DNA from: Candidatus Peregrinibacteria bacterium | GTDB lineage: Bacteria; Patescibacteriota; Gracilibacteria; Peribacterales; Peribacteraceae | Length of the DNA stretch: 60,456 bases | Assembly (NCBI GenBank): GCA_016178535.1 | Contig: JACOTD010000078.1 | Location: forward strand, 1-60,456 | Direction of reading: 5' to 3' | Part shown: positions 2,203 to 45,711 of the stretch, one piece after another | How positions within the stretch are numbered: the stretch's first letter is position 1 | Layout of the letters: each line of letters opens with the position of its first letter | Translations under genes and position numbers: made by a program | The notes under the pieces: model-generated | The model's input: only the letters and a program-made list of their open reading frames with translations | The model's database searches: none | What the model was told of the DNA's origin: nothing

Positions 2203-4863
<2,661 letters not shown>

Positions 4864-4868
4864 GGAAA

Positions 4869-5010
4869 TGGTTTGTTTGCTGTTTCTGTTTCCTCTCCCC
4901 CCGACCCCCTCTCCGATGGAGAGGGGGCGAAATGTTCCATTGTGCGAATTCTCCCCTCCTCCCTCGGAGGAGGGGCAGGGGGTGGAGGAAAACAACAAAC
5001 AACCCCAACA
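4869..5010. repeat. G/C-hairpin MITE-like element, family A, copy A1 (3' of gyrA)
   Basis: The termini gtttgtttgctgtttctgttt ... aaaacaacaaacaacc are inverted. Two perfect 10-bp hairpins are present: ccccctctcc-gat-ggagaggggg (4905-4927) and cccctcctcc-ctc-ggaggagggg (4953-4975), followed by gggggtggagg. It is homologous to 20813-20965 and related to 16606-16885 and 56076-56120. Confidence 0.8.
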
Positions 5011-5053
5011 CACCTCTTGTGCTCTCTGTCCATTTCTGTAGACTCTGCGAGCC

Positions 5054-5266
5054 ATGAAACCCGCCATTCACCCCACGATGCATGAGAAAGCGAAGACGAC
5101 CTGTGTCTCCTGTGGCGCCGTGTACCTCATCCCGAGCACGGTCAAAGCACAGACGGTCGAGGTGTGCCGTGCGTGCCATCCGATCTACACGGGCAAGGCG
5201 CAGAAAGATCTGAAGGGCGGCCGCGTCGACCGCTTCCGCAAGCGCATGGCGAAGGGGAAGAAGTGA
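5054..5266 (+). CDS. rpmE: 50S ribosomal protein L31
   Basis: 70 aa: MKPAIHPTMHEKAKTTCVSCGAVYLIPSTVKAQTVEVCRACHPIYTGKAQK..GRVDRFRKR. The CxxC...CxxH zinc motif and the L31 signature are present. Confidence 0.95.
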   Translation: MKPAIHPTMHEKAKTTCVSCGAVYLIPSTVKAQTVEVCRACHPIYTGKAQKDLKGGRVDRFRKRMAKGKK

Positions 5267-5343
5267 TCAAGCGTGGTCATGGCGTTCGTTCGTTGACCAC
5301 TCTTTTGTCAAAGGTGTATAATCAGTGTTACATCTTCTCATAC

Positions 5344-5535
5344 ATGCCGCAGTTCTCCCTTCGCAGGCTCGAAAAAGATCTTGCCGCGGCGCCGCGAGAA
5401 CAGCAGCGCGTTTTTTTGGCACATCTGCCGCAAATTCTGGATCTTGCGCCGTCCGATGTTGTTCTCCTCAAAGCTTCCGAGCCGTCGTTCGAATTCTGGA
5501 ATAATTCCGATGATGCGATCTATGACTCCCTTTGA
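5344..5535 (+). CDS. Putative antitoxin partnering the downstream MazF/PemK toxin
   Basis: 63 aa from the ATG at 5344 (MPQFSLRRLEKDL...SFEFWNNSDDAIYDSL). It overlaps the start of the MazF-like gene by 14 nt. An acidic ...W.N..DA.YD tail is common in small antitoxins. The family is not identified. Confidence 0.5.
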   Translation: MPQFSLRRLEKDLAAAPREQQRVFLAHLPQILDLAPSDVVLLKASEPSFEFWNNSDDAIYDSL

Positions 5536-5866
5536 ACCGGGAGATATCGTGCTCGTGCTCTTCCCCTTCACGGATTTTTCGACAGCCAAGCAGCGTCCGT
5601 GCGTTGTGCTTTCTTCCTCCCGATTCAACCGTTCCCATCGTGACGTGATCCTTGCGGCCATCACATCCAACGTCCACGATCGCCCCGATGAGAACGAGTA
5701 CCTCTTGACTGATCGCGAGCAGCAGATGTGCGGCCTTCCCAAAGTTTCCATGATCAAGGCCGCGAAGATCGTGACGGTTGATCAACGCTTGGTTCGTGTG
5801 AGGCTTGGCCGTCTCCCCGCTGCGTCTCTCCAGCGTATCCGTTCTCTGGTGCATCGCATCATTTGA
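5522..5866 (+). CDS. mazF: MazF/PemK-family type II toxin (mRNA interferase)
   Basis: MTPFEPGDIVLVLFPFTDFSTAKQRPCVVLSS...DVILAAITSNV...MIKAAKIVTVDQRLV. This is the canonical PemK/MazF SH3-like core (GD-V-F-...-KxRP-V-S). Confidence 0.85.
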   Translation: MTPFEPGDIVLVLFPFTDFSTAKQRPCVVLSSSRFNRSHRDVILAAITSNVHDRPDENEYLLTDREQQMCGLPKVSMIKAAKIVTVDQRLVRVRLGRLPAASLQRIRSLVHRII

Positions 5867-5878
5867 GACGAGAAAGCC

Positions 5879-5923
5879 CGCCGCGTGGATCGTTTCCGCA
5901 TGGCGAAGGGGAAGAAGGAGTGA
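5879..5923 (+). repeat. Relic second copy of the rpmE 3' end
   Basis: gcccgccgcgtggatcgtttccgcatggcgaaggggaagaaggagtga matches rpmE 5219-5266 (ggccgcgtcgaccgcttccgcaagcgcatggcgaaggggaagaagtga), apart from a 6-nt gap and a few substitutions. It would translate as ARRVDRFRMAKGKKE*. Confidence 0.75.
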
Positions 5924-5924
5924 T

Positions 5925-6137
5925 ATGAGCGCACAAGAATTTTCATGGTGGGGAGAACCTCTGACATTGAAGCCCGGCGATCGGATTCGTCGCACGGAAG
6001 TTCTCATCGGCGATCCCGGTGGCATGGACGGCATCTGTGGAACAGTTTTGAGATTCTCGCTGAAAAAGATCCTGATGGAGTGGGTTGTTTCGTACAAGAT
6101 GTATTGGGGAAGGCATCCATTCCGATGCGCTACCTGA
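5925..6137 (+). CDS. Hypothetical small protein (weak call)
   Basis: The ATG at 5925 lies directly after the relic rpmE stop (TGATATG) and gives 70 aa: MSAQEFSWWGEPLTLKPGDRIRRTEVLIGDPGGMDGICGTVLRF... No family was recognised and the composition is atypical. Confidence 0.25.
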   Translation: MSAQEFSWWGEPLTLKPGDRIRRTEVLIGDPGGMDGICGTVLRFSLKKILMEWVVSYKMYWGRHPFRCAT

Positions 6138-6208
6138 CTCGAATACTTTTTGAGAAGGTCTAAGAGCGTGCTCAAGATCTCTTGAATGGAGCAAATGAAA
6201 GCAATTTT

Positions 6209-6275
6209 GTCATCCTGAGCCGTGTCGAAGGAGAAAAAATGGCGGTTGTCATGGTTCGACACGGCTCACCAAGAC
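6209..6275. repeat. REP-like element, family B, inverted half-site pair (upstream of hrcA)
   Basis: gtcatcctgagccgtgtcgaagga (6209-6232) and ggttcgacacggctcaccaagac (6253-6275) are inverted copies of the TCGAC-N4-GCTCAG core that recurs across the window. Confidence 0.7.
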
Positions 6276-6379
6276 AACCTTCCTTTTTATTGTTCTACAA
6301 ATATGAAGATCTTGAACAGGCTCTAATGAGGGTCAGAGTTTGGTATCACTCCCCCGTCAAGACTGCTATACTCTCTTGC

Positions 6380-7096
6380 ATGAATTCCCGCCAAGCGAAG
6401 CTCCTCGCGGCGATCATCGACCAGTTCATCGAGACGGCCACGCCCATCGGTTCCAAGCATCTGCTCGAGGCAGGCGGCGAGCTCTTCTGCCTCTCGGGCG
6501 CGACGATCCGGAACGAGATGCGGGTGCTCGGCGACGAGGGCTATCTCGAACAGCCGCACATCTCCGCCGGCAGAGTCCCCACGGCCAAGGGGTACCGCGT
6601 GTACGTGAAGGAATTCATGGAGCCTTCGGTGCACGAGCGGCGAGTTCGACAGAAGTTCGCGACCCTCAAGGAACAGTATTTCCAACGGAAGGATCAGGAG
6701 CGGGCGTACGAAGCCGTCGCGCTTCTCTCGCAGATGATTCCGAACGTCGCTTTCGCGACGGTGCCGCACAAGCCGCGCGTTTCCTACCTGGGCCTCGCCA
6801 ATGCTCTGCGTCAGCCGGAATTCCTGATGAATCCGCGTCTGGCCACAACGGTCGTCGAGGTGCTCGAAGAACGTCTCTCGAATGTCCTCGCACACCTCGA
6901 AGTCGACGAGCGAGTGCGGTACTACATCGGCGACGAGCACGTGCTCCCGCAGATCCAGAGCTGCAGCCTCATCGTGCAGGAGTACCGCGTGCGCGGGAAC
7001 GGGGGCGTGATCGGCATCCTCGGCCCCATGCGGATGGACTACGGCTACAATACCGTCGCGCTGGAGCTGGTGAGGGAGTTGCTTGAGGCGAATTGA
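6380..7096 (+). CDS. hrcA: Heat-inducible transcription repressor HrcA
   Basis: From the ATG at 6380: MNSRQAKLLAAIIDQFIETATPIGSKHLLE...SGATIRNEMRVLGDEGYLEQPHISAGRVPTAKGYRVYV. This is the winged-helix HrcA N-terminus. The protein is short (238 aa) relative to classical HrcA. Confidence 0.85.
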   Translation: MNSRQAKLLAAIIDQFIETATPIGSKHLLEAGGELFCLSGATIRNEMRVLGDEGYLEQPHISAGRVPTAKGYRVYVKEFMEPSVHERRVRQKFATLKEQYFQRKDQERAYEAVALLSQMIPNVAFATVPHKPRVSYLGLANALRQPEFLMNPRLATTVVEVLEERLSNVLAHLEVDERVRYYIGDEHVLPQIQSCSLIVQEYRVRGNGGVIGILGPMRMDYGYNTVALELVRELLEAN

Positions 7097-7262
7097 AAAT
7101 GGAAAATGGATAATTGACCCCTCGACACGGCTCAGGATCACTCGCAGATTATTTGCATCACGAACATGTGTCACACTGAGCGAGGTCGAAGTGTGACAAT
7201 TATGGCAGGAATTCTCGTATCTGTATCGCTTCCAACATTATCCATTTTCAATTTTCATACTA
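7097..7262. repeat. Composite REP-like element, family B, copy B2
   Basis: Order of parts: aaatggaaaatggataattgac, then cccctcgacacggctcaggatcac (7118-7141), a 28-nt spacer, then gtcacactgagcgaggtcgaagtgtgac (7170-7197), aattatggcagg, and finally ccattttcaattttca words. The architecture matches 13396-13552 and, inverted, 15809-15985. Confidence 0.75.
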
Positions 7263-7267
7263 GTCGT

Positions 7268-9988
7268 ATGAACCAAACTCCGAAGCACGTGCTCTTGAGA
7301 ATCCGGCCGTCCCTTCCCGATCCCGACGAAGTGAGCGCGGCGCGCGGGCCGATCATGATGGAGGCGGTGATTGCGGCGATCCATTCGCTCAAGAAAACGC
7401 ACGGACAGATGAGCCTCGAAATCGGCAACAGCGAGGGGAAAATCGTGCTCTTCGCGCGGGCAGACGCCCAGGCGGCTCCGCTCGTCGAGAGCCAGCTCTA
7501 CGCGCAGTATCCGGATGCCGAGATTGATCGGGAGCCGAAGGATCTCTTCGCGACGAAGAGGGGAGAGAACGTTTGGTCATGCGATCTCGTCCTCACCGAT
7601 GCGGAAATCTTCCCCATCAAGCGCTATCCGCAGTTCACCGATCTCGCCACACGCCAGGCCATCGACACGATCGCGGGCATCACCTCGACGCTCGTGCGCT
7701 ACCCCAAGCACGGCATGCGCGGGCATATCCAAATCATCTTTCGTCCGATTGGTCACCGCTACCGCCGCGCGGCGTTGCGGTTCCTGCCGCTCCTCACGCG
7801 CGGGCTCTCGCGGCATTCGCAAGGCTACGCACGCTTCTTCGCCAAGATGCACCTGGCGCGCGGATGGAAGAAGCTCCTCTTCCTCGGACCCGATATCGCG
7901 ATGGGAGGGTTCCGCGCGTGGTTCCTGCGTCCTCCCAAGGTGCAGACGTCCCTCCTCACCGGCGACGAGGTCTCCGATACCACTCCCGATGAAGAAGCCG
8001 AGCGCGGCGCCATGCGCAACCACGATCGGGAAGATCCCGTGACCGCGGCCGTCGACAAGATGAATCACTTGCTCTTCCTCTGCAACATCCGCGTGAGCGT
8101 GATCGCGGATGCGGAGGATGAACAGGAAGCACGGGCGAAAGTGGAGGAGATTGCCAGCAGCTTCCGACAGTTCACGTTGCCGCAGTGCAACGGTTTCCGC
8201 CACAAGGCGATCCGAAGTCATGCGCAGATTCCATCGGGTTTCGTCGAATCCCCGTACGTGCTCTCCGCCGAGGAGCTCGCGACGATTTGGCACGTGCCTA
8301 ATATCCTCGTCAAAACCCCCAACATCGATTGGGTCCTCAGCAAGCAGCTGGAGCCGCCTGTGGATTTGCCCATTTCCTCCACCCCCGACCCCTCCTCCAA
8401 AGGAGGAGGGGGGAATGATCCAGACCTCACCATTCTCGGGCAGGCCGTGTTCCGCGGGCATCATGAGACGTTCGGGATCCGTCCAGATGATCGTCGGCGT
8501 CACATCTACATCATCGGGAAGACGGGCATGGGCAAGTCGACGCTCCTGGAGAATATGATCTTCAGCGACATCCACGCGGGGAAGGGCGTCGCCGTCGTCG
8601 ATCCGCACGGCGATTTGGTCGAAGCCGTTCTGCGCTTCATTCCCGCCAAGCGAAGCAATGACGTCATTCTCTTTGATCCGGCAGACAAGGAATTCCCCGT
8701 CTCGTTCAACATGCTCCAGTGCGAGAACGCCGAGGAGCGCGTCCTCGTCGTCTCCGGTCTTATGAGTGTGTTCAAGAAGCTCTGGCCCGAAGCCTTCTCC
8801 GGGCGCATGGAGTACATTTTGAGGAATACGCTCTTGGCCCTCACCGAAGCGGAGAATCAATCGATGCTCGGCATCATGCGTATGTTCTCCGATGCATCGT
8901 TCCGCGCGAAGATCCTCGAGCGCGTTTCGAACCACATGGTCAAGAGCTTCTGGCAGGACGAGTTCACCACGTGGTCGGAGAAGTACCAGACAGAAGCGCT
9001 CGCGGCCATCCAGAACAAGATCGGGCAGCTCCTCTCCGCGCCGCTCATTCGAAACATCGTCGGGCAAGTGGTCTCCAAGCTCGACATCCGTCACGCGATG
9101 GACACGGGGAAGATCATCCTGATGAATCTGAGCAAGGGAAAACTCGGCGAAGACAATTCGGCGTTCCTCGGTTCCATGTTCGTCACCAAGTTCCAGCTCG
9201 ATGCCATGAGCCGCGCCGATGTCCCCGAGAACGACCGTCGAGACTTCTACCTCTACGTCGACGAGTTCCAGAACTTCGCAACGGAATCGTTCGCGACGAT
9301 TCTGAGTGAGGCGCGCAAGTACCGTCTCAACCTCACGATGGCGCACCAGTACGTGGGGCAGTTGCTCCTCCAGAATGGGAACACTGCACTGCGGGACGCC
9401 GTCTTCGGCAATGTTGGCAGCATCGTCTGTTTCCAAGTCGGTTCCGATGATGCCGAGCCTCTCTCCGAGCAGTTCGAGGAGATGGTTCTGCCCAAAGACA
9501 TTCTGAGCCTTCCAAAATATCATGCCTACATGCGACTCATGATCAAAGGCATCCCGAGCAAGCCGTTCTCCGTCCGCACCCTTCCCCCGCCCGATTTCCG
9601 GCAGGATGAAGGACGGATGGAGAAGATCAAAAACCTTTCCCGCGAGCGGTACGCGGAAGAGCGCGTGATCGTCGAGGACAAGATCGGCAAGTGGGTCGCG
9701 AGCGCCCGCGCCGCGCATAAGAGCGCCAAGTCTTTCGAGAAATCCAAAGAGAAGGAGGAGGAAGAGAAGAAGAGAGCGAAGGCCAAGGGTCTGCCGCTCG
9801 AGGACTATCGAAAATGGCGCGACCGCGAGATGTGGACGAACGACTACAACATGCTCCGCAAGAAGAAGTTCAAAGGCGAAGCACTCACGAAAGATGATGA
9901 CGAGAAGATGAAGGATTTGGAGAAGAAGCTCGAAGCGAGCGGGGGAGTGCCTCCGCCGAGTAAGACGATGACTGCCAGTAAAAAGTGA
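7268..9988 (+). CDS. TraD/VirD4-like (type IV coupling protein family) P-loop ATPase with a ~400-aa uncharacterised N-terminal domain and a K/E-rich tail
   Basis: Walker A is IYIIGKTGMGKSTLLENM. Walker B/coupling-protein region is DFYLYVDEFQNFATESFATILSEARKYRLNLTMAHQYVGQL. No TM segment is obvious. The start is chosen at the ATG at 7268 (MNQTPKHVLLRIRP), downstream of the repeat. Confidence 0.75.
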   Translation: MNQTPKHVLLRIRPSLPDPDEVSAARGPIMMEAVIAAIHSLKKTHGQMSLEIGNSEGKIVLFARADAQAAPLVESQLYAQYPDAEIDREPKDLFATKRGENVWSCDLVLTDAEIFPIKRYPQFTDLATRQAIDTIAGITSTLVRYPKHGMRGHIQIIFRPIGHRYRRAALRFLPLLTRGLSRHSQGYARFFAKMHLARGWKKLLFLGPDIAMGGFRAWFLRPPKVQTSLLTGDEVSDTTPDEEAERGAMRNHDREDPVTAAVDKMNHLLFLCNIRVSVIADAEDEQEARAKVEEIASSFRQFTLPQCNGFRHKAIRSHAQIPSGFVESPYVLSAEELATIWHVPNILVKTPNIDWVLSKQLEPPVDLPISSTPDPSSKGGGGNDPDLTILGQAVFRGHHETFGIRPDDRRRHIYIIGKTGMGKSTLLENMIFSDIHAGKGVAVVDPHGDLVEAVLRFIPAKRSNDVILFDPADKEFPVSFNMLQCENAEERVLVVSGLMSVFKKLWPEAFSGRMEYILRNTLLALTEAENQSMLGIMRMFSDASFRAKILERVSNHMVKSFWQDEFTTWSEKYQTEALAAIQNKIGQLLSAPLIRNIVGQVVSKLDIRHAMDTGKIILMNLSKGKLGEDNSAFLGSMFVTKFQLDAMSRADVPENDRRDFYLYVDEFQNFATESFATILSEARKYRLNLTMAHQYVGQLLLQNGNTALRDAVFGNVGSIVCFQVGSDDAEPLSEQFEEMVLPKDILSLPKYHAYMRLMIKGIPSKPFSVRTLPPPDFRQDEGRMEKIKNLSRERYAEERVIVEDKIGKWVASARAAHKSAKSFEKSKEKEEEEKKRAKAKGLPLEDYRKWRDREMWTNDYNMLRKKKFKGEALTKDDDEKMKDLEKKLEASGGVPPPSKTMTASKK

Positions 9989-10113
9989 ATCCATTGTTCG
10001 CTCGTTCGCTCGCCTGTCCTGAGCGACGCCGAAGGGTTCCTCATTTTTTTCATCAGGTCGAGCTAGCAAGCTAACCAGCTAACTTTTTCTGAAGGGGATG
10101 CTATTCTCGATCC

Positions 10114-10794
10114 GTGCGGCGCTTCATCATTCCCTTGCTCGGATGCAGTCTCTTGCTTTCCTGTAGCCATTCGTCACTCAAATCATCCTTTTCTCCGAGT
10201 TCCATGGAACCGATTACGTACATGCCCATCGGCGATTCGTACACGATCGGGACGGGAGTGACGCCGGAAGAATCGTGGCCGGTGTTGCTCACGGAGGATC
10301 TCCGCAAACAAGGAATCCCGATTGCCCTTGGGTACAACCCCGCGGTCAACGGATGGACGGTGGGCGCCGCGATCGAGGGGGAACTGCCGTACATGGAACT
10401 CGAGCATCCGACATTTTCGACGCTCCTCATCGGCGCCAACGATGTCTACCGTGGCATCGGAACATCGCTTTTCCGCAATCGTCTACGCAGATTGATGGAT
10501 GACATGCTCAAAGTGCTTCAGAACAAGAATCGTCTTTTGGTCATCACAATCCCGAATTTCGCCGTCGCGCCGTCCATTGCCAATCCCGATTTCATCCCGA
10601 AGATCGAAGAGTACAACGGCATCATCCGCGATGAAGCGATCAAGAGGGGACTGACAGTTCTGGATCTCTTCGGGCCCACCACGGCCTTCGCGCCGGAGGA
10701 TTATGCGGAAGATGGTCTGCATTTTTCGCCGATTGGGCACAGGAAGCTGGAGACGATCATAGGACCGGTGGCGAAAGAATTAGTGGCCAAATGA
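10114..10794 (+). CDS. SGNH/GDSL-family hydrolase lipoprotein
   Basis: GTG start. The signal peptide has a lipobox (MRRFIIPLLGCSLLLSC). Block I is YMPIGDSYTIGTG, block III is GANDV, and block V is DGLHFSPIGH. Confidence 0.85.
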   Translation: MRRFIIPLLGCSLLLSCSHSSLKSSFSPSSMEPITYMPIGDSYTIGTGVTPEESWPVLLTEDLRKQGIPIALGYNPAVNGWTVGAAIEGELPYMELEHPTFSTLLIGANDVYRGIGTSLFRNRLRRLMDDMLKVLQNKNRLLVITIPNFAVAPSIANPDFIPKIEEYNGIIRDEAIKRGLTVLDLFGPTTAFAPEDYAEDGLHFSPIGHRKLETIIGPVAKELVAK

Positions 10795-11632
10795 AATTCT
10801 CTGGGAAGGATCCGCGGGCAGTCCTTCGACTCCGCTCAGGACAAGTATGCCCGCTCCTCAGCAGAAAAAGACACTTTCGGATTTCTCATACCTCAACAAA
10901 AAGACTCCTGACGGAGCCTTTTTGTGTGTGTATTCCCTCCTGCGACTATCGACGGTGTTTCTTCGAGGGACGACCGTTGAGCCGTTGTTGGTAGGAGGAT
11001 CCACGGAGGGGAGGTGCCCTCGTGCTCTTGCCCTGCTGGGGTTGCTTGTTTCTCCTCGTCACCCGGACGAAGTCCCCGTGCCGGTTCGCCGCGCGGGGCA
11101 CTGAGGCTCCGGGGGAACGCTGGGGAGAAAAGGGTGCACGTCCGTCGAGACAAACCTCTTCATCGCGGACGCGGCATCGCAGAGCAGAGAGAGGAGAAGG
11201 CACGGGCGATCCCGTGTCCTCTACCCAGAAATATCCAAGAGAGGAAATGTGTGGCCGGGAGGCACGAGCGCTTGAGCGCCTTCTCCCTTCTCTGCGCGGG
11301 GAGGAATCGTCAGATTGGTTTCTGATTTTTGGTATCTGGCTTTTCCTCAGAGTCGGTGGTGGCAAGGATCAGGGAATGTTTGTGTGGGCACCCGGGTGCG
11401 GTGTATGTGGGTGTGGATCTCTGTGATCTGCTCGGTAGCCATCGGCGTTGGAAGCAAATCTGAGCATGGTAAGGGTCGAGCTTTAGGTTTGCAAGCAACT
11501 GGGCTGTGATGACCATCGGAATTCTTCTGTGAATATATTTTGTATTCAGAAAACAAGAGGGATCGGTACATGGAGAATAAGAACATATAGATGCATTTCC
11601 GTATGTTCTCAAATTTTGTGCAAGTTCTTCCG

Positions 11633-12034
11633 TCATTGTCCCATGACGGCGGGGAAGAGGATGAGCACGATGACGATGAGGATGACGATGAAGCTCACGA
11701 GGGATGCGGCAGCCGCGACGTCCTTGGTTGCCCGTAATCCCGCGTGGTACTCCTCGCTCACCGATCCCGCGACCCGCAACTCATCGACGCAGTCCGTGAG
11801 GTGCTCGAGGGCGGTGTTCAGCAGCTCGATCGACAGGAAGAACCCTCCTGCGAGCGCGAGGGCAACCGTCTGCCACCGTTCGACGTTGAAGAGGGAAGAG
11901 ACCACGAGCAGCGCGATGAAGCCCGAGAGGAACAGCCGGAAGTTCCGTTCCTCCTTCAGCGCCTTCTGAAAGCCGCGCTTGGCATGGCCGAAGCTGCGGA
12001 CGGTGGTCTTGATCATGAGGGAAATGTACTCCAT
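11633..12034 (-). CDS. dgkA: Diacylglycerol kinase / undecaprenol kinase family (DgkA)
   Basis: RSFGHAKRGFQKALKEERNFRL...SIELLNTALEHLTDCVD...ATKDVAAAASLV, the DgkA signature with 3 TM helices. Start uncertain: ATG at 12034 or 12016, or TTG at 12082. Confidence 0.85.
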   Translation of the reverse strand: MEYISLMIKTTVRSFGHAKRGFQKALKEERNFRLFLSGFIALLVVSSLFNVERWQTVALALAGGFFLSIELLNTALEHLTDCVDELRVAGSVSEEYHAGLRATKDVAAAASLVSFIVILIVIVLILFPAVMGQ

Positions 12035-13395: not shown

Positions 13396-13552
13396 GGAAC
13401 AATGGAAAATTGACCCTTCGACACGGCTCAGGGTCACTTGGAGATAACTTTCATAGCTGGATTAGGGGTCATACTGAGCGAAGTCGAAGTGTGAAAATTA
13501 TGGAAGCGATTTAAGACTTGGCACTTCCTTCTCCATTTTCAATTATCAATTT
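13396..13552. repeat. Composite REP-like element, family B, copy B3 (glyA 5' region)
   Basis: ggaaaattgac, then cccttcgacacggctcagggtcac (13414-13437), a 30-nt spacer, then gtcatactgagcgaagtcgaagtgtga (13468-13494), aaattatggaagcg, and finally ccattttcaattatcaattttcaattgtcaattttt words. Confidence 0.75.
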
Positions 13553-14131
13553 TCAATTGTCAATTTTTCCCCTCGCCGTGATCACTGCATCCACCGTCTC
13601 ATCGTGCGCGTCCATCGGCACGTCGTTCACCATTTGCGCTTCGAAGCAGACTCCCCAGAATTTCGTCTGCGGATTCAGTGTTCGTTGCCTCCGGATCCAG
13701 ATGTCGTAGCCGCCGTTGCCTCGTCCGAGGCGTTTCCCCGTCTTGGTGTAGGCCCGCGCAGGAACGAGTGCGATCGAGAGTTCTTCCGGATTCAGCGGGG
13801 GAGAGGTCAGAGGAGGTTCGAGAATCTTGAGCGGTCCCATCACGAGACGTTCCAAGCTCTCCGCTCGACGGAACACCAGAGCGTTCTTCTCGAAAGCAGG
13901 CAGTGCGATGATCCAGCCTTCGCTGAGAAGTTCTTCCAGGAGAGGCCGGATATTCGGTTCCGTCGGCATCGGGACGTACCCGGCGATGACGCCCGGTTCC
14001 TTCGGAAGCACTTCGCGAATCCGTCGACAGAGGCTGCGGCTCTCGGCGTCGAGATTTTTCTTACTCCTATGCGCGAGGCGTTCCTGGATGGAGCGCCGGA
14101 GGAGTGTTTTCTGGTCGTGCAGATTGGTCAT
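13553..14131 (-). CDS. 5-formyltetrahydrofolate cyclo-ligase
   Basis: 192 aa: KTLLRRSIQERL...GYVPMPTEPNIRPLLEEL...LVPARAYTKTGKRLGRGNGGYD...DVPMDAHDETVDAVIT, the MTHFS family pattern. It is adjacent to glyA. Confidence 0.85.
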   Translation of the reverse strand: MTNLHDQKTLLRRSIQERLAHRSKKNLDAESRSLCRRIREVLPKEPGVIAGYVPMPTEPNIRPLLEELLSEGWIIALPAFEKNALVFRRAESLERLVMGPLKILEPPLTSPPLNPEELSIALVPARAYTKTGKRLGRGNGGYDIWIRRQRTLNPQTKFWGVCFEAQMVNDVPMDAHDETVDAVITARGKIDN

Positions 14132-18210: not shown

Positions 18211-20118
18211 TCACGCCGCCATCGCATGATGGGGTTCGTGCGCGGTTTTCGCATCGACCTCGGGTTGCGCGAGCGTCGTCGTTTTGTTGTGCTGCACTGC
18301 TCCGTTCTCCGTGAAGCGGATGCCGCGATTCTCCATCTCGTTCGCCAGACGCTGCAGGTGCGGATGCACGTTCTGGTTGATGTACTCGTGCTTCTCGTAG
18401 GCGAGGTCGACCGGGATCTCCGTGGTCCAGTACGTGAAGTAGAAGTTGTTCTTCTGCGCCTCGAGCATCTCGTCGAGCGGTCCCGCGCTCTGGCGATTCG
18501 TGTAGAGAATTTGGGGCGAATTCACGCGCTCCTGCTCGCGCATGGCCGCGTGGGCGTTCGTGGGGTTCGTCACACTATTCGCTTCGAGCCCTCTCTTGCT
18601 GTGGCCGTGCTTCATGCGCTCGGGGGTCTGCATCTCCGCGGATTTCTGGAGCGCTTTCTCCTTGTCGTCGTCCAGGTAGTGATGGCGCCGACACCACACG
18701 CGGTTGTACCAGAGGATGCGCTTGGCGCGGAACTTGCGCGCGCTCTGGAGTGAGAGCACGTGCGAACGGCGATGTTCCGCGGGAATCTGCTCCAGCCAGT
18801 GCCGCGTTTCGTCCACCACCTCCTGATCGCTCGGCTTGCGCTCTTCCTTCGTCTGCCCCTTTCCCCGGTCGCTTCGATGCTGCCGCAGGTACTGCTCCAT
18901 CGATTGCAGCTTCTGGCTGTCTTCGACGGTCATCGGCTTGCTCCTCGCCTCTTTGATCTCCCGCTGCGCGATGTCCCAGTCCTGCATGTCGAGCGCGTTT
19001 CGGATGCTGAGGAAGTCCGGCCGTTCCCTGTTGATGTCCGCAAACCTCCTCCCTGCTTCCTCCACGTAGGCTTTGCGCTTGTCGTAGTGCCAGTCCAGGA
19101 AAATATTCTTGTGGACGAAGTGGAAGGTGCGCGGCGTGCCGATCCTCTCCCGCATCTGCTCGATCTTCACGAATTCCCGCCCCACCTCCGTCCAGCGGTT
19201 GATGAGTTCGGAGAGCGTCATCGGCTCTTTGCCTTTGCCGTTCAGGAATGCCTCAATCTTGTGCGGATCGGCGCCGCTCTCGAAGATCCGGCGCAGCCAG
19301 AAGCCAACCTTCCAGGGTGCGAGGCCTCCGGCGCCCACCGCATCCCGCAACTTCGCCTCGGCCTTCTTATACAGTTCCTTGCAGCGGGCCTGCGGGTTCT
19401 TCTCCAGTTTCTTGAGCACCGCGATCTGCGCGAGGATTGTATCGACGATGTTCCTGCGGTACTCGAAGTGCCCGTCCTTGAACGCCTCCAACTTCACCAT
19501 CCCCAGCTGCTCGATGTCGTTCTCCGTGAGATGCATCTGCTTCACGTCCTTTTCAATGTCGTCCATGCTCTTCCCGAGCTTCTCCCAGTTCTTGTAGTAC
19601 TCGGGGAATTTCTCCGTCAAGAAAGCCTCTTTCTTCCAGTGCTGCACCTCATCGGTCTTCAGGCGCCTCATCCAATTCTCCGCGCTCGTTGCGCCGATCC
19701 AGCCTTTCGACGCAGCGTGCCGAATGTCGATCGTGAATTTCTGCTCCATTCGTGTGAGTCGGCTTTCCATTTCGGGAATGTATCGATCGATGGATTCGCG
19801 GACCACGTCCATTCGCTCTTCCATGGTTGAGCCTTTGCCCGTCGATTGCGCGTAGAGCTCCCACTGCGACTCGGAACGATTGTATCGTTCAAATTCTTCA
19901 AGATCTCGTTGGCTGACCATGGATGTCGCGCTCATCATGGATCGATAGCGCTGCAGGGCTTGCTCCAATACTCGTTTGAATTGTTCGGTCGCTTCCATGT
20001 CGCCCATCTGCGATGCTCCGTCACCGTAGTCTTTCCGTCCGGTTTTTTCAGCTATCACGCGATGCTGCGTTTCACCGATGGCCATCTTGCCGAGCGTTGT
20101 GAGGTGCACGTCTGGCAT
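18211..20118 (-). CDS. Hypothetical protein, 635 aa, charged/alpha-helical, no recognisable domain
   Basis: Uninterrupted ORF with an ATG at 20118 and GC3-rich codons like neighbouring genes. There is no TM or signal peptide. It is 78 nt upstream of, and co-oriented with, the DM13 lipoprotein gene. Confidence 0.65.
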   Translation of the reverse strand: MPDVHLTTLGKMAIGETQHRVIAEKTGRKDYGDGASQMGDMEATEQFKRVLEQALQRYRSMMSATSMVSQRDLEEFERYNRSESQWELYAQSTGKGSTMEERMDVVRESIDRYIPEMESRLTRMEQKFTIDIRHAASKGWIGATSAENWMRRLKTDEVQHWKKEAFLTEKFPEYYKNWEKLGKSMDDIEKDVKQMHLTENDIEQLGMVKLEAFKDGHFEYRRNIVDTILAQIAVLKKLEKNPQARCKELYKKAEAKLRDAVGAGGLAPWKVGFWLRRIFESGADPHKIEAFLNGKGKEPMTLSELINRWTEVGREFVKIEQMRERIGTPRTFHFVHKNIFLDWHYDKRKAYVEEAGRRFADINRERPDFLSIRNALDMQDWDIAQREIKEARSKPMTVEDSQKLQSMEQYLRQHRSDRGKGQTKEERKPSDQEVVDETRHWLEQIPAEHRRSHVLSLQSARKFRAKRILWYNRVWCRRHHYLDDDKEKALQKSAEMQTPERMKHGHSKRGLEANSVTNPTNAHAAMREQERVNSPQILYTNRQSAGPLDEMLEAQKNNFYFTYWTTEIPVDLAYEKHEYINQNVHPHLQRLANEMENRGIRFTENGAVQHNKTTTLAQPEVDAKTAHEPHHAMAA

Positions 20119-20197
20119 GGACGCTCATTCTACCAGCGCGATGGGGAATGACACTTCTCTTGGCACCAAAATCGTTTCCTGTGCTACGCTCCCCAAG

Positions 20198-20812
20198 ATG
20201 ATTCTCTCCGATCGCGATATTCGCAACGCGTTGGCCTCGGGCCGCGTCGTCATTGAATCTCCCCAGGAGGACGCATCGACTGCGCTCAGTGCAGGGATGT
20301 TCCCGCACATCCACGCCTCGAGCATGGATTTGCACCTGGGCAGCAGCTTCAAGCTCTACGAGCACAGCAAGTTCGCCGTCATCGATCCCAAGCGCCCGGA
20401 GACGTTCACCGGCAACATGCGGCTCATCACGGTCAACGAAGGCGAATCGTACATGGTGCAGCCGGGCGAGTTCGTGCTCGGCGTGACCGAGGAGACCATC
20501 ACCGTCCCCGATGACCTCGTGGTGAGAGTGGAAGGACGTTCCAGCCTCGGTCGGCTCGGGATCATCGTCCACTCCACGGCCGGCTTCGTGGATCCCGGCT
20601 TCTCCGGCACGATCACGCTCGAGATCAGCAACTTGAACCGCATGCCCATCGCCCTCTACCCGGGGATGCGCATCTGCCAGATCGCCTTCGAGGAGCTCAC
20701 GAGCCCCGCGGAGACGCCCTACCACAAGAAGCCGTTCTCCAAGTACCAGGGGCAGGTGCTGCCGGAGGAGAGCCGGCTGTCGATGGATCCGGAGTTCACG
20801 CGGAAGCGGTGA
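20198..20812 (+). CDS. dcd: dCTP deaminase
   Basis: MILSDRDIRNALASGRVVIE...GEFVLGVTEETITVPDDLVVRVEGRSSLGRLGIIVHSTAGFVDPGFSGTITLEISN...MRICQIAF. Confidence 0.93.
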   Translation: MILSDRDIRNALASGRVVIESPQEDASTALSAGMFPHIHASSMDLHLGSSFKLYEHSKFAVIDPKRPETFTGNMRLITVNEGESYMVQPGEFVLGVTEETITVPDDLVVRVEGRSSLGRLGIIVHSTAGFVDPGFSGTITLEISNLNRMPIALYPGMRICQIAFEELTSPAETPYHKKPFSKYQGQVLPEESRLSMDPEFTRKR

Positions 20813-20965
20813 GTGTTTGTTGTTTGTGTTTTCCTCTATCCCCCATCCCCTTTCTCCGGGGGAGAAAGGGGGGGCCTCAACAATTTGTGTTTTTGGAAAT
20901 TCTCCCCTCCTCCATCGGAGGAGGGGTCGGGGGTGGAGGTTGGACAAAAAATACAAAACAAACAT
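20813..20965. repeat. G/C-hairpin MITE-like element, family A, copy A3 (3' of dcd)
   Basis: gtgtttgttgtttgtgtttt ... aaaatacaaaacaaaca termini. Hairpin 1 is cccctttctc-cgggg-gagaaagggg (20846-20870). Hairpin 2 is cccctcctcc-atc-ggaggagggg (20903-20925), followed by tcgggggtggagg. It is collinear with A1. Confidence 0.8.
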
Positions 20966-20969
20966 CCCT

Positions 20970-21806
20970 TCACCACTCCCCAAACGATCCCAACGTCATC
21001 TTCCTCTCCCACAGCATCTCGGGCAGTTCCGGGTCCGTGAGCATTGCGAGTTCCGTGAGACGTTGGGGATCCCGGTCGAACTCGCTCCCGGTCGGGTTCG
21101 CGCTCCCCGGGTGCACCATCAATTCGGTCGTGCCCTCGGGGAGGCGGGCGAGGATGTGGCGCAGATTCTTCTTGCTTGCCGAGCCCACGAGCGCGAGCCC
21201 GCGGAAGTGATTGGTCGAGCCGATGCCGTTCTCTTCGTAGAGCGGGCGCACCGCTTCGGCTTGGGCACTGATCGCCTTCGCCGCTTCGAGCCGCTCGGGT
21301 GCGATTTCCCAGCCGAAATGGGGCAAGGGTTCGATCGGCAATCGGACGAAGCGAATCCCGTAGCGCAGGAGAATGGGGATCGCGAGCGGAACGATCGTCG
21401 GATGCACGTGGATGTGATGGTGTCCGTCGACGTGGGTGGGCGCCTCGCGGCGGTGATCGAGGAACCACTCGGCTTGTGCCCGAAGTTCGCGCTCAATATG
21501 CGTTCCATCAATGGCTCCTTCGTCGAGTGATCGTCGAAGTTGATGACGATCGAGGAAGGCGTCGTCGCGGCTGAGGAGGGAGGCGACGTCCGCGGCATTG
21601 CTGATGGGAGATCCCTCGGTGAGGTTCCAATGAAGTCCCGTGGGGAGCTTTCGTTCATGAGCATGCTTGGCGGCCGTCTCACTGTCGCTCCCATTCACAA
21701 TCAGTGTCGCGCTCGAGACGATGCCGAATTCAAACGCCTCGAAGATTCCGTGGCTCCTCTGCGGATTGATCCCGAGATCATCGGCGTTGACGATGAGGGT
21801 GCGCAC
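20970..21806 (-). CDS. ChbG/HpnK (YdjC) family carbohydrate deacetylase
   Basis: GTG start: MRTLIVNADDLGINPQRSHGIFEAFEFGIVSSATLIVNG...GLHWNLTEG...VDGHHHIHVHP. Confidence 0.85.
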   Translation of the reverse strand: MRTLIVNADDLGINPQRSHGIFEAFEFGIVSSATLIVNGSDSETAAKHAHERKLPTGLHWNLTEGSPISNAADVASLLSRDDAFLDRHQLRRSLDEGAIDGTHIERELRAQAEWFLDHRREAPTHVDGHHHIHVHPTIVPLAIPILLRYGIRFVRLPIEPLPHFGWEIAPERLEAAKAISAQAEAVRPLYEENGIGSTNHFRGLALVGSASKKNLRHILARLPEGTTELMVHPGSANPTGSEFDRDPQRLTELAMLTDPELPEMLWERKMTLGSFGEW

Positions 21807-21840
21807 AGGGGCATTCTACATGCTAGAATGTTCTCAGAGA

Positions 21841-21917
21841 GGACGATTAGCTCAGTTGGTTAGAGCGTGCGACTCACATTCGCAAGGTCACTGGTTCGAA
21901 CCCAGTATCGTCCACCA
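21841..21917 (+). tRNA. tRNA-Val (anticodon CAC), CCA encoded
   Basis: Manual cloverleaf: acceptor GGACGAT/ATCGTCC, D arm GCTC-AGTTGGTTA-GAGC, anticodon arm TGCGA-CTCACAT-TCGCA, variable loop AGGTC, T arm ACTGG-TTCGAAC-CCAGT, then discriminator A plus CCA. Confidence 0.9.
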
Positions 21918-22188
21918 TTCTGGATGTTCGTCATTCGCAAGGTCTCAGCCCAGGCTGATCGAACCCAGTATCGTCCACCATTCTGGATGTTCGTCATTCG
22001 CAAGGTCTCAGCCCAGGCTGATCGAACCCAGTATCGTCCACCATTCTGGATGTTCGTCATTCGCAAGGTCTCAGCCCAGGCTGATCGAACCCAGCCAGGC
22101 TGATCGAACCCAGTATCGTCCACCATTCTGGATGTTCGTCATTCGCAAGGTCTCAGCCCAGGCTGATCGAACCCAGTATCGTCCACCA
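21918..22188 (+). repeat. Tandem array of four 63-nt units, each a degenerate copy of the tRNA-Val 3' half
   Basis: The unit ttctggatgttcgtcattcgcaaggtctcagcccaggctgatcgaacccagtatcgtccacca occurs at 21918-21980, 21981-22043, 22044-22125 (with a 19-nt internal duplication, ccaggctgatcgaacccag) and 22126-22188. cattcgcaaggtc and cgaacccagtatcgtccacca are identical to tRNA positions 21877-21889 and 21897-21917. Confidence 0.9.
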
Positions 22189-22282
22189 TTCGACCGCCTG
22201 AGGCGGACTCATGGCAAGCCATTTGATTTGAATTTGTCCTCAGAACACAGTGCAGAATACATTGACGTACCCCGTGCCCGCT

Positions 22283-24073
22283 TCATCGTCGTTCCTCTCC
22301 AGTTGCTACGTTCAGCGCATGCTCCTCCTTCGGATTGATCGCGAGAGCCCTCCGCGCACTCTCCTGCGCGTCACTCTTCTCCCCGATCTGGTTCTGAATT
22401 TGCGCCAATCTTCCCCATGCTTCGGCGTCATGCGGATCGAGGATCAAGGCTTGCTGAAACGCCGTGATCGCGCTCTGCGGGTCTCCCTTTTTCGCGTACA
22501 GGATGCCGAGATTAAAGAACGCGGCTTCCAGGGTGGGGTCGCTCGTAGCGGCGGCTTCGAAGTGGGTGGTTGCTTCGTCGATGTTGTTTTCGGCCGAAAG
22601 GAGCGTGCCGAGGTTCAGGTGCGCGCGCGCGTGGTGCGGGTCGAGCGCGAGCGCCTGTGCGAATGCCTTCTTGGCTGCCGGGAGGAGATTCTTGTCGAGG
22701 TCGATGAGCCCAACGTTGTACCACGCTCGTGCCGTGGGGCGGATCGCGATGGAAGCTTTGTACTCAGCGAGCGCGCCATCCGCATTTCCCTCGTCCCGCA
22801 GATAATTCCCGACATTGTTGTGGGCGAGGTGGGAATTCGGATAGAGCGCGAGGGCGTTTCTGAAGAGCGTCTCCGTCTTCGCCCACACGAGCGATTGCCG
22901 GAAGGCCAGGACGCCGAAGATCGTTGTGATGATCATGGTCGGAATCGTCAGCGAGAGCGGGAACATCCTCCATTCATTCCTCTGCTCGAGCAGGAATTTG
23001 GCTGCGAATGCAATGAGCAGGAGCAACCCGATCATCGGCAGATAGGCGTAGCGGTCGAAGGCGAAGTAGAAATCGAGGAAGCCGTCGCCCCTGTTCACGT
23101 TGCCGAAGGTGGGGGCAATCGTGAGGAAGAAGATGCAGGCGCAGAGGAACATCGCACGTGTCCATCGGCGCGAAACGATTACGATCACGAGGAGCGCAAT
23201 CATGACGAAGAGCGAGAAGAGCAGGTGAGGTGAAGCGAGCGTGATCGGCGCGGTGTAGGGGTAGAGGACGGAGAGGTGCATCGGGAGGAGGAATTTCTCG
23301 AGCGTGAAGAGGACGCTTTTTCCTCCGAGCAGTATGTAGTCGAGGATCGTTGCATTCCCGATCGCCGCGGTTTTGCCGCCGTACGCGATGATTCCGAAGA
23401 GAAGACTCAGGAGGAAGTAGAGTGCTTTTTCCCAGACGAGTTTCCATCTCCACGGACGCCCTTCGAATTCATCCAGAGCCAGGAGCAGGAACGGGAGCAG
23501 AATGACGGTCACTTTCGAGAGCAGCGCAAGGAGGAATGTCGCGATGCTCAGCCAGTGCCACAAGCGTTTTTCGGATCGCAGAAAGACGATGTACGTCGCG
23601 AGCGCGAACAAGAAGAAAAACGCCGATTGCAGATCTTTGCGTGCCGCCGCCCACGCAACGGCTTCCGTATTCAGCGGATGCACGAGGAAGAGGAGCGCGC
23701 AGAGGATGGCCAAGTCCTTCCTGCGAACGAGGAGGAGCGCGAGCCAGAAGACGAGCAGGGCATTGGCGATGTGCAGTGCCAGATTATGCGCGTGGTAGAG
23801 GAAGGGATGCAGTCCCGCGATCAGATAGTCGAATTGGTACGAGACGAACGTGAGGGGAATGTAGAGCTCCGGATCATAGGAGGTAAATGCTTTCGCGACA
23901 TTGGTCGGAGTCGGTCCCTGCACGATGGGATTTTTGAAGATCAGCACACCGTCGTCGAAGTCGACGAAGGAATTCCGGAGACTCACGCCGTACACGAGCA
24001 GCGCGATCCCCGTGAGAGCGATGGCCAGCAGGAACCATGCGCGGAGAGAGAAGTCGCGGTCGGGGGGAGGCAT
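22283..24073 (-). CDS. Membrane glycosyltransferase-like (PMT/TMTC-type, GT-C) protein with C-terminal TPR repeats
   Basis: 596 aa. The N-terminal polytopic region begins FVDFDDGVLIFKNPIVQG...YDPELYIPLTFVSYQFDY...HAHNLALHIANALLVFWL. The C-terminus carries several TPR units (AHNNVGNYLRDEGNADGALAEYKASIAIRP..., ARAHLNLGTLL..., AFFNLGILYAKKGDPQSAITAFQQALILDP). Confidence 0.8.
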   Translation of the reverse strand: MPPPDRDFSLRAWFLLAIALTGIALLVYGVSLRNSFVDFDDGVLIFKNPIVQGPTPTNVAKAFTSYDPELYIPLTFVSYQFDYLIAGLHPFLYHAHNLALHIANALLVFWLALLLVRRKDLAILCALLFLVHPLNTEAVAWAAARKDLQSAFFFLFALATYIVFLRSEKRLWHWLSIATFLLALLSKVTVILLPFLLLALDEFEGRPWRWKLVWEKALYFLLSLLFGIIAYGGKTAAIGNATILDYILLGGKSVLFTLEKFLLPMHLSVLYPYTAPITLASPHLLFSLFVMIALLVIVIVSRRWTRAMFLCACIFFLTIAPTFGNVNRGDGFLDFYFAFDRYAYLPMIGLLLLIAFAAKFLLEQRNEWRMFPLSLTIPTMIITTIFGVLAFRQSLVWAKTETLFRNALALYPNSHLAHNNVGNYLRDEGNADGALAEYKASIAIRPTARAWYNVGLIDLDKNLLPAAKKAFAQALALDPHHARAHLNLGTLLSAENNIDEATTHFEAAATSDPTLEAAFFNLGILYAKKGDPQSAITAFQQALILDPHDAEAWGRLAQIQNQIGEKSDAQESARRALAINPKEEHALNVATGEERR

Positions 24074-27197: not shown

Positions 27198-27857
27198 ATG
27201 TCCATCGATCCCAAGCGCATCCTGTTTCGCGATGATTCGTTCCTCGCGGTGCTGAAGCTGAGCGGCGAACTCGTCGTGAAAGGGAAGGGGAGAGTGGACC
27301 GGTTGCCGCTCCTCGATTTTCTCCGGAAAGAATTCCCAGGATTGCACCCGATCAGTCGTTTGGACTTCGAGACATCGGGAGTAGTGCTCTTCGCGAGGAA
27401 TCGCTCGGTGCTCAAGATTTTCCTGGATACAAAGTTTGCGCAGTGGTCGAAGACGTACCAGGCGATCGTTGCGCACCGCATCGACCGCGATCAGGGGCTC
27501 ATCTCCTTCCCACTCCCGGCGCGCACAGCGAAAGTGACAGTGGAAGCGAAGACGATGTATCGCGTTCTCGAGCGCTTCGCGGATGCCAGTTTGGTCGAAG
27601 CGGAAACCTCCACCGGTCGCCACCACCAGATCCGGCGGCACTTGCGCATGATCGGCCATCCTCTCGCGCTCGATGCGGTCTACGGCCAGGAGAAATTCAA
27701 CACGCTCTTCACGCGCGCATTCCACTGCCGTCGCTTCTTCCTCCACGCATCCGCCGTCTCATTCCAACATCCAGTCACGAAGGAAATGCTTCGGATCGAA
27801 GCGCCGAGGCCGAAAGTGTTCGAGGAGATGCTGGGGAAATTGAGAATTGAAAATTGA
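27198..27857 (+). CDS. RluA-family pseudouridine synthase
   Basis: HPISRLDFETSGVVLFARN (catalytic Asp motif), YQAIV, and TGRHHQIRRHLRMIGHPLALDAVYG. Confidence 0.88.
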   Translation: MSIDPKRILFRDDSFLAVLKLSGELVVKGKGRVDRLPLLDFLRKEFPGLHPISRLDFETSGVVLFARNRSVLKIFLDTKFAQWSKTYQAIVAHRIDRDQGLISFPLPARTAKVTVEAKTMYRVLERFADASLVEAETSTGRHHQIRRHLRMIGHPLALDAVYGQEKFNTLFTRAFHCRRFFLHASAVSFQHPVTKEMLRIEAPRPKVFEEMLGKLRIEN

Positions 27858-27946
27858 GAATTGAAAATGATGGAAGAAATTTCACGTTCTGCGCTGCTGC
27901 CATAATTTTCAATTTTTCATTCAATTTTCAATTACACTGTGCCTCT

Positions 27947-35480: not shown

Positions 35481-35551
35481 GGGAGTGATGGGAAGTTGCG
35501 AGTTGCGAGTTGCGAATTGCGAGTTACGAATGACGAATGACGAATTACGGA

Positions 35552-44757: not shown

Positions 44758-45711
44758 TCACGCCCCCCTCAATCCCGGCACCTTCTGCTTCAGAAGCTCC
44801 ACGACGGCGTCCACGTCTTCATTCACCATGATGTGATCGAAGAGGTCTTTGCGCTCGGAAAAGAAGTCGAGGTCCTTCTCCGCATTCTTCAGGCGGTCGG
44901 CGATGTGCTCTTCGGTGTCGCGGCCTCTTGTTCGGAGTCTGTGCAATAAATGACTCAGCATCGCCCGCTTGCTGTTGCCGGGCGGGAGGAGGCCGCAGGA
45001 GAGGATGGAGCGGCGGCCGTACTGTTCGGCGAGGCCTTGGAGCAAGTGCATCTCGGTGATGACGACGGGAATTTTCCCCGCCTTCCAAATGCGCTCGATG
45101 TCCTGCGCGCGGTAGCCGTACAGACGGTCTTCGGATGAGGAAGGGATCTGCGTGCTCGCGATGATCTCGCCTCGGCTCTGGAGTTCAGCGAAGGTTTTCT
45201 TGGCAATGTAGCGATACTCGCCGTCGTCTCCCGCTTTCTTCCTGCGCGTCGTGTGGATCGGCACGTTCTCGAGGTAGCTGGAACACATCTGAACGAGGAG
45301 GCGGCTGATGGTGGATTTTCCCACGCCCGAGGGGCCAGTCAGTGCAAGAATGTATCCAGGGAAGTTCGGCACTTCCTTCGAAACGGGCAGACGTTGTTTC
45401 GTTGTCTCGTTGTGTTGTTGCTTGTCTTGCGATGCAGGTTCGAATGCGACGTCATACATTCGGAGCTTCTCTCCATTGATTCGAGAAAGTCTCATGCGGG
45501 GGAGAACGGCGTCACCAATCGAACAGGGGGCCGTGAGAGGCGCGAGAACGTTGGAGCCGTCTTCGAGCGCGATGAGGGCGATGCGCCGCGGGAATTTCCC
45601 AAAGGCTGCAGGCGGATGCAGGAGGGTCGTCACGGAGACGACGGTGCCGGGCTGCATCTTGCTCCCGCGCTGCTTGAGCGCACGGTGAAGGGAAGGCGAC
45701 GTGTCAGTCAT
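44758..45711 (-). CDS. Fusion protein: DUF35-type OB-fold domain (thiolase/HMG-CoA-synthase partner) plus a guanylate-kinase-like P-loop domain
   Basis: The N-terminal part GTVVSVTTLLHPPAAFGKFPRRIALIALEDGSNVLAPLTAPCSIGDAVLPRMRL fits the DUF35 OB fold, and no Zn-ribbon Cys pairs are present. The C-terminal part LTGPSGVGKSTISRLL...IHTTRRKKAGDDGEYRYI...LYGY...NEDVD fits a guanylate-kinase-like fold. The ATG at 45711 overlaps the thiolase stop by 8 nt. Confidence 0.75.
   Translation of the reverse strand: MTDTSPSLHRALKQRGSKMQPGTVVSVTTLLHPPAAFGKFPRRIALIALEDGSNVLAPLTAPCSIGDAVLPRMRLSRINGEKLRMYDVAFEPASQDKQQHNETTKQRLPVSKEVPNFPGYILALTGPSGVGKSTISRLLVQMCSSYLENVPIHTTRRKKAGDDGEYRYIAKKTFAELQSRGEIIASTQIPSSSEDRLYGYRAQDIERIWKAGKIPVVITEMHLLQGLAEQYGRRSILSCGLLPPGNSKRAMLSHLLHRLRTRGRDTEEHIADRLKNAEKDLDFFSERKDLFDHIMVNEDVDAVVELLKQKVPGLRGA

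Follow-up and report, generated by a model that had tools for sequence, protein, structure and literature searches.

A tandem array of 63-nt units, each ending in a copy of the tRNA 3' end, lies directly behind the tRNA-Val(CAC) gene of the window (the whole stretch of 60,456 nt that was analyzed). By all its testable defining features, namely its position, the 22/22 identity of its 3' ends, and its copy number, the array is a locus of tRNA-linked repeats (TLRs); it is a curiosity resembling the long-known TLRs of Escherichia coli, a precedent that the original prediction had not named, and not a new kind of system. We consider it likely that a decayed partial copy of tRNA-Val, ancestrally a single unit, was amplified here to about four units. 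The locus offers a clean natural example of TLR growth, with one copy versus four in sister species and the seeding direct repeat visible, and it reveals repeats of this kind in CPR bacteria, whose genomes are reduced. In practical terms, the array breaks short-read assemblies at the locus and spawns spurious repetitive ORFs.

Organization of the array, the tRNA-Val gene, and its flanks

The positions of all features are given in Table 1. Downstream of tRNA-Val(CAC), Tandem Repeats Finder (TRF) detected a 63-nt period with 100% matches (score 398), and unit 1 begins at the base right after the encoded CCA of the tRNA, with no spacer. ARAGORN and Rfam, for the tRNA, and TRF, for the repeats, together confirm this arrangement, which had been proposed from the letters of the DNA as a tRNA-Val(CAC) gene followed by four spacerless 63-nt copies.

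Each unit holds two blocks shared with the tRNA. The 13-nt block CATTCGCAAGGTC, which occurs five times, corresponds to tRNA positions 36-48 (3' side of the anticodon arm plus variable loop), and the block TCGAACCCAGTATCGTCCACCA corresponds to the 22-nt 3' terminus of the tRNA (T loop through CCA), with 22 of 22 positions identical in the four units. Within 3 mismatches, TCGAACCCAGTATCGTCCACCA has five occurrences in the window and none in 100 shuffles. The 5' strand of the T stem is replaced by TCAGCCCAGGCTGA, a 14-nt palindrome (TCAGCC-CA-GGCTGA). The trinucleotide TTC that follows CCA is common to the tRNA, all units, and the exit flank (TTCGACC...); therefore, the true direct repeat, or anchor, is 25 nt long. 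The exact identity to the tRNA 3' end that the original prediction had described is present, but it covers 22 nt instead of 21 and is repeated as the 25-nt anchor with TTC. When we searched the window for the palindrome or the exit flank hairpin as a dispersed REP-like element, both were found only at the array locus.

Unit 3 departs from the common pattern; TRF places its doubled 19-nt segment at 22076-22113. This unit could equally be the product of two units fused via a 44-nt deletion, and inspection of its junction by eye showed no clear microhomology.

No unit was called a tRNA by ARAGORN, and none was detected by Rfam RF00005 at E <= 10. Over positions 20500-23500, Rfam returned the tRNA only at E <= 10, and miRNA and snoRNA hits in this region were discarded as noise. 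The spurious miRNA-family hits were caused by a long C-tract/G-tract inverted repeat at 20841-20932, past the 3' end of dcd and within the 3' ends of minus-strand ORFs (20072-20983), which is possibly a terminator hairpin. Look-ups of the two repetitive ORFs across the array (88 and 223 amino acids) gave no recorded protein. Because no such proteins are on record and a relative with a single unit cannot conserve them, these ORFs are artefacts, as had been suspected.

Table 1. Features of the tRNA-Val locus and its tandem array
Feature	Position	Strand	Description
YdjC/ChbG deacetylase	20970-21806	-	Upstream, divergent
Putative extended -10 promoter element	21821..21829	+	TGCTAGAAT; 11 nt upstream of the tRNA 5' end
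tRNA-Val(CAC) with encoded CCA	21841..21917	+	ARAGORN; Rfam RF00005, 70.8 bits, E = 9e-15
Unit 1	21918..21980	+	63 nt: TTCT + GGATGTT + CGT + CATTCGCAAGGTC + TCAGCCCAGGCTGA + TCGAACCCAGTATCGTCCACCA
Unit 2	21981..22043	+	Identical to unit 1
Unit 3	22044..22125	+	82 nt, owing to a tandem 19-nt duplication of CCAGGCTGATCGAACCCAG
Unit 4	22126..22188	+	Identical to unit 1
Ancestral 3' flank of the tRNA (exit flank)	22189..22270	+	Opens with TTC, as each unit does
TPR protein	22283-24073	-	Downstream, convergent

The tRNA-Val gene itself folds with z = -2.3. The putative promoter element upstream of it is identical in the sister locus; since a consensus promoter scan at the locus gave no full -35/-10 promoter, we assign it this role tentatively. 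The exit flank carries a hairpin, CCGCC-TGA-GGCGG, at 22194-22206, followed between 22211 and about 22237 by AUGG-CAAG-CCAU and a U-rich tract. The latter two may form a weak terminator, a role that we can only propose, because a terminator consensus scan found none at the locus. Compared with the flank that follows the single unit of the sister species, the exit flank is identical at 72 of 82 positions, with the stems kept and one loop change, and the flank at a further locus (L026) shares TTCGAC...CTCATGG.

The neighbors of the array are ordinary chromosomal genes. The dCTP deaminase gene (dcd, stop at 20812) precedes ydjC, and dnaX, glyA, a mevalonate-pathway cluster, and PEP carboxykinase are found further away. 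Pfam scans of 40 large ORFs across the 60-kb window revealed no integrase or recombinase. Orthologous tRNA-Val genes adjoin dcd/ydjC in other Peribacteria, and MAGs labelled Candidatus Peribacteria or Peregrinibacteria share with the window both the sequence of the tRNA and the order p635-dcd-(ydjC)-tRNA-Val. The G+C content of the window (about 0.58), the mevalonate genes, the tRNA, and the gene order place the window in the CPR class Peribacteria, in agreement with the description of that class (PMC4736985).

Unit-to-unit junctions in other assemblies and a single unit in the sister species

The array also interrupts three other assemblies of this population, which still show unit-to-unit junctions. 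In the NCBI assembly GCA_016200245.1, obtained from the same population, the locus is split over two contigs. JACQFC010000028.1 ends with the tRNA, one unit, and 45 nt of a second and includes the junction of unit 1 to unit 2, whereas JACQFC010000071.1 starts with 37 nt of a unit, followed by one full unit and the exit flank, and includes both a unit-to-unit and the unit-to-exit junction. Both contigs carry the junction GCTGA-TCGAAC...CCA-TTCTGGATG, which is impossible from a single-copy locus. A Logan contig of SRR12113411 ends at 21925. Logan graphs are built with k = 31 (PMC12424806). In this contig, the final 31-mer begins on the last base specific to the tRNA (21895), and the 31-mer after it belongs to both kinds of junction, tRNA-to-unit and unit-to-unit. 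The end of the contig thus coincides with the point at which a second path would enter the graph, a break expected only if the reads hold a unit-to-unit junction. The window differs from JACQFC010000028.1 by two SNPs (20633 and 20635) and therefore represents a separate consensus that also found the tandem array. Because unit-to-unit junctions are present in independent assemblies, the tandem arrangement is real, and an array of at least 2-3 units is established.

The original prediction had named an assembly expansion of a single copy as a finding that would count against it. On this reading, the genome has one unit, like its sister, and the assembler looped the graph several times. The NCBI assembly of the same population does break precisely within the array, the 19-nt duplication is present in one of two assemblies only, and short reads are unable to count identical 63-nt units. 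Against this, the two NCBI contig ends each hold a full unit and part of a second with the junction sequence between them, the Logan contig ends at a node that merges the tRNA-to-unit and unit-to-unit paths, the window is a separate consensus with the same tandem arrangement, and the single-copy locus of the sister species assembles straight through. We therefore regard such an artefact as very improbable. The copy number of four and the 19-nt duplication are not secure and could reflect strain variation or assembler choices, as both were taken from assemblies. The duplication predicted for the third copy is present in the window and absent at the matching position in JACQFC010000071.1, where the penultimate unit is canonical.

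Four Logan k = 31 contigs from other samples that contain YdjC homologues (L053, L054, L056, and L057) likewise end in or at tRNA-Val. This illustrates that the tRNA-Val sequence, common to co-occurring Peribacteria, routinely breaks assemblies.

A protein search with YdjC identified one close relative (92% amino acid identity) in assembly GCA_016201685.1, hereafter L050. Its locus is 91.6% identical to the window at the nucleotide level through dcd, ydjC, and the tRNA, and its contig, which passes uninterrupted through the locus, contains exactly one 63-nt unit, TTCTGGATGTTCGTCATTCGCAAGGTCTCAGCCTAGGCTGATCGAACCCAGCATCGTCCACCA, directly after tRNA-Val. This unit differs from that of the window at 2 of 63 positions. 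In L050, the 3' ends of the tRNA and the unit match at 20 of 22 positions, the mismatches being one substitution in the T loop of the tRNA and one, from T to C, in the unit; the corresponding match in the window is 22/22, which makes it the better substrate for slippage. The comparison of copy number with relatives that had been suggested as a check thus gave one unit in L050 versus four here.

More distant relatives lack the unit. None was found at twelve further tRNA-Val loci of Peribacteria/Peregrinibacteria recovered in a genome scan, 6 of which show dcd adjoining tRNA-Val. Three more YdjC homologues led to six loci with 63-66% identity, none of which shows the unit; four of these reach the flank, and two stop inside the tRNA gene. 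An identical array in distant relatives, which had been named as evidence that would count against the prediction, is therefore absent from the twelve loci and from the four that reach the flank. Because L050 has one unit and distant Peribacteria have none, the single unit appears to be ancestral and the array a recent expansion. The data fit a genus-level feature that was present once in the common ancestor and would have multiplied in the lineage of the window. Since the unit is present in just two genomes, whether the array expanded here or contracted in the sister lineage is judged by parsimony and by the perfect identity of the copies.

The two loci also differ by an indel that starts 82 nt after the array. 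Opposite positions 22270-22313 of the window, L050 (reverse complement, 4403-11894) contains a 7.5-kb block found in L050 only, which encodes TrmB-like and Asp-protease-like proteins, an ABC transporter, an SLH protein, and a 536-aa ORF. Its far end has no tRNA fragment.

TLR likeness, proposed growth of the array, and competing readings

TLRs of E. coli were described by Egan & Landy 1978 and Rudd 1999, as summarized in PMC8144298. [quoted passage not shown] We checked the tyrV locus in NC_000913.3 and found three 178-nt repeats behind tyrV; they are 95% identical and extend over the last 19 nt of the tRNA. In the annotated rttR (rtT RNA; tyrT-tyrV repeats), an internal GGGGAAGGAU pairs with the tRNA-derived 3' end.

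The array of the window shares with these elements its place directly downstream of a tRNA gene and within the presumed transcription unit, the head-to-tail arrangement (1-5 copies per locus in E. coli, 4 here, and 1 in L050), the ending of each copy in the 3' end of the upstream tRNA with CCA (18-19 bp in E. coli, 22 here), a trailer after each copy that is the same as after the tRNA, and an internal stretch complementary to the tRNA-derived 3' strand. It differs in several respects. The unit is 63 nt long instead of the 178 nt of the tyrV repeats, its copies are 100% rather than 95% identical, and it contains a second tRNA-derived block, the 3' side of the anticodon arm with the variable loop. 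The host belongs to the CPR, and the sequence is unrelated to any E. coli TLR. Furthermore, a single-copy orthologue in the sister species documents expansion here.

Perfect tandem copies, a copy number that differs between close relatives, and a small internal duplication are also found in minisatellites or VNTRs. Unlike an anonymous intergenic tract, the array is seeded by the end of a tRNA gene and overlaps the 3' terminus of a functional gene, which ties it to a transcript. Expansion of a minisatellite by slippage was among the explanations originally offered, and it gained support, as the four copies are identical, L050 has one unit at the orthologous site, and the assemblies disagree on structure. 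These features, namely 100% identity, four copies versus one between sisters, and a structure that differs between assemblies, are those of a slippage minisatellite.

In the mechanism that we propose, a decayed partial copy of tRNA-Val would have stood behind the tRNA as one 63-nt unit in the common ancestor with the sister species. It would have kept the block of acceptor 3' strand and T loop, the anticodon-arm block, and a short 5' piece pairing with the 3' strand. The 25-nt repeat of tRNA 3' end plus TTC would thereby recur 63 nt downstream, and whole units would have been added whenever these direct repeats mispaired by strand slippage or recombined unequally, resulting here in at least four identical copies. 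We infer that this is the simplest route to the array; the perfect identity of the copies would follow because each event gains or loses whole units. Because it follows the tRNA and precedes the conserved hairpin and U-rich flank, the array is probably co-transcribed with tRNA-Val and removed during maturation. On this scheme, tRNA-Val and the array would share one transcript from which the array is cut away, and the extra copies presumably have no function of their own.

The stable single copy of the sister species speaks against a further reading, in which the units are a series of att scars from an element that targets the 3' half of tRNA-Val and has repeatedly integrated and been excised. 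The resemblance to the attL/attR sites of tyrosine-integrase islands and prophages lies in the duplicated 3' part of the tRNA from the anticodon loop onward, and tRNA-Val does attract insertions in this class: at two loci, L009 and L022, a GIY-YIG gene and a 164-aa ORF, respectively, lie between an intact and a degenerate tRNA-Val. The sequence TCCGACTAGGCGGT in L009 shares 9-10 of 14 positions with the unit palindrome (p about 3e-4 to 2e-3), and the 7.5-kb indel relative to L050 begins 82 nt past the array. In contrast to att sites, however, the units abut with no cargo, no integrase or recombinase is encoded in the 40 large ORFs scanned, as had been noted from the letters, and the identity to the tRNA is split into 13 + 22 nt by the 14-nt palindrome and does not form one contiguous core. 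The four units are identical, including the 28 nt not derived from the tRNA, which independent events would not yield. Under this reading, the attP would be expected to contain the leader, CATTCGCAAGGTC, and TCAGCCYAGGCTGA. Three scans of viral contigs (for the 22-nt 3' block, the anticodon-block/palindrome junction, and the leader junction) gave 0 hits, and a BLAST search with the unit found nothing in phages or plasmids; the proposed search for an element carrying the unit as attP was thus negative. A scan of metagenome contigs with CGTCCACCA-N(5-30)-CATTCGCAAGGTC returned 4 hits, all chance matches inside unrelated sequence. Taken together, these results make serial scars, which the original prediction had listed among its explanations, a highly improbable source of the array.

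Growth of the array by slippage would leave the origin of its first copy to be considered separately. In L009 (5942-6374), a Peribacteria MAG, tRNA-Val is followed by an 88-aa GIY-YIG nuclease ORF (6038-6304; Pfam E = 2.7e-17) and by a 100-nt degenerate tRNA-Val copy (6275-6374) with a perfect acceptor stem and the T loop kept. The D, anticodon, and T-stem-5' parts of this copy are replaced by mutually complementary GC-rich segments, and the T-stem 5' replacement is the sequence that matches the unit palindrome at the same site (9/14 for the window and 10/14 for L050). In L022 (735-1432, minus strand), a Peribacteraceae MAG, an intact tRNA-Val is followed by the 164-aa ORF, which has no Pfam hit, and then by a 66-nt degenerate 3' part of tRNA-Val that forms a long hairpin (z = -2.9). 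These two loci, from more distant Peribacteria, show that the 3' side of tRNA-Val is unstable. Because both carry cargo before a degenerate tRNA-Val, an old insertion or duplication at tRNA-Val is a possible source of the first copy, which suggests that the unit may descend from an older degenerate tRNA-Val duplicate, perhaps via an insertion event. A 19-nt direct repeat at 21759-21777 and 22328-22346 (17/19) that brackets the tRNA and the array was also considered and set aside as probably chance or coding convergence, since both copies are coding and specify similar peptides (LGINPQ in YdjC and LAINPK in the TPR protein).

A different question is whether the unit could be a selected RNA, namely a 60-65-nt tRNA-like piece cut from the tRNA-Val transcript, with an acceptor-like stem, a discriminator A, and CCA, that would offer RNase P a cleavage site right behind the tRNA, leaving a trailer of 4 nt, or would work as a decoy or small RNA, the extra copies raising its dose. 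The conservation between the two species hints at purifying selection on the unit rather than a neutral relic. The unit differs at 2 of 63 positions and the tRNA at 2 of 77, compared with 49 of 229 four-fold sites of ydjC and dcd (21%; Fisher p = 0.0003 against the unit), and for the 28 non-tRNA bases the comparison with four-fold sites gives p = 0.01; the single substitution in the palindrome falls in its loop. Against flanking non-coding DNA (14/116), the conservation of the unit is borderline and not significantly higher (p = 0.056), with p = 0.13 for the 28 non-tRNA bases, and the comparison spans two species only.

The structural evidence is similarly divided. The leader and 3' strand can pair as GGAUGUU/AUCGUCC in the exact tRNA register, with one G-U and one U-U mismatch and A73-CCA left free. 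The pairing of TGGATG with CGTCCA that was originally pointed out does exist, although this register is better and 9% of random 14-mers from the window pair likewise upon resampling. Because so many random 14-mers match equally, the complementarity is not significant on its own, and a first estimate that took it as significant (about 0.002) was dropped. The GGAUG/CGUCC stem in the tRNA register has an ensemble probability of 0.57-0.63 here and of 0.27-0.39 in L050. In E. coli, transcripts of the TLRs in rRNA operons are processed and bind Hfq/CsrA, although TLRs are so far without known function (PMC8144298), and rttR likewise pairs its internal stretch with the tRNA-derived 3' end. On the other hand, the folds of single units are no more stable than those of shuffled sequences (z = -0.7 and -1.2), the minimum free energy structure differs from the acceptor-like stem, and in a long transcript the same bases favor a local hairpin across each CCA junction. 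The T-stem is destroyed, consistent with the lack of any match to the Rfam tRNA model at E <= 10, and the two checks that had been proposed, ARAGORN and folding of single units, were both negative (no unit called; z = -0.7 versus shuffles).

On balance, we think it rather unlikely that the unit is a selected RNA of this kind, and we would give a role as RNase P entry site or small RNA a similarly low chance. The broader idea seems quite unlikely to us as well, namely that TLR-type elements from E. coli to the CPR are a selected class of tRNA-derived trailer RNAs. The unit would then retain just the acceptor stem, A73, and CCA of tRNA-Val and be released from the transcript. It could be the RNase P entry site through which the tRNA matures at its 3' end where the host has few RNases, or a small RNA or decoy that bears CCA, with slippage tuning the dosage. 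Should the unit prove to be processed and selected, it would provide a second, phylogenetically remote test case for TLRs.

Other features of the window

No repeat is linked to the other tRNA gene of the window, tRNA-Gly (56368-56442). At 7166-9988, the window encodes a 940-aa protein with a type IV secretion coupling-protein (TrwB/VirD4-like) ATPase domain, flanked by large ORFs with no Pfam matches. The only low-G+C stretch of the window (0.465) is found at 41649-44048; it contains a 799-aa ORF with no Pfam match, is adjoined by an AAA_14/DUF4143 ATPase gene (40040-41539), and may be foreign DNA. Short tandem repeats occur elsewhere, namely heptamer arrays at 13535-13567, 27837-27868, and 35494-35549 and the octamer CGTTGTCT, which is tandemly repeated at 45392-45413 (2.8 copies) and at 53238-53272 (4.5 copies).
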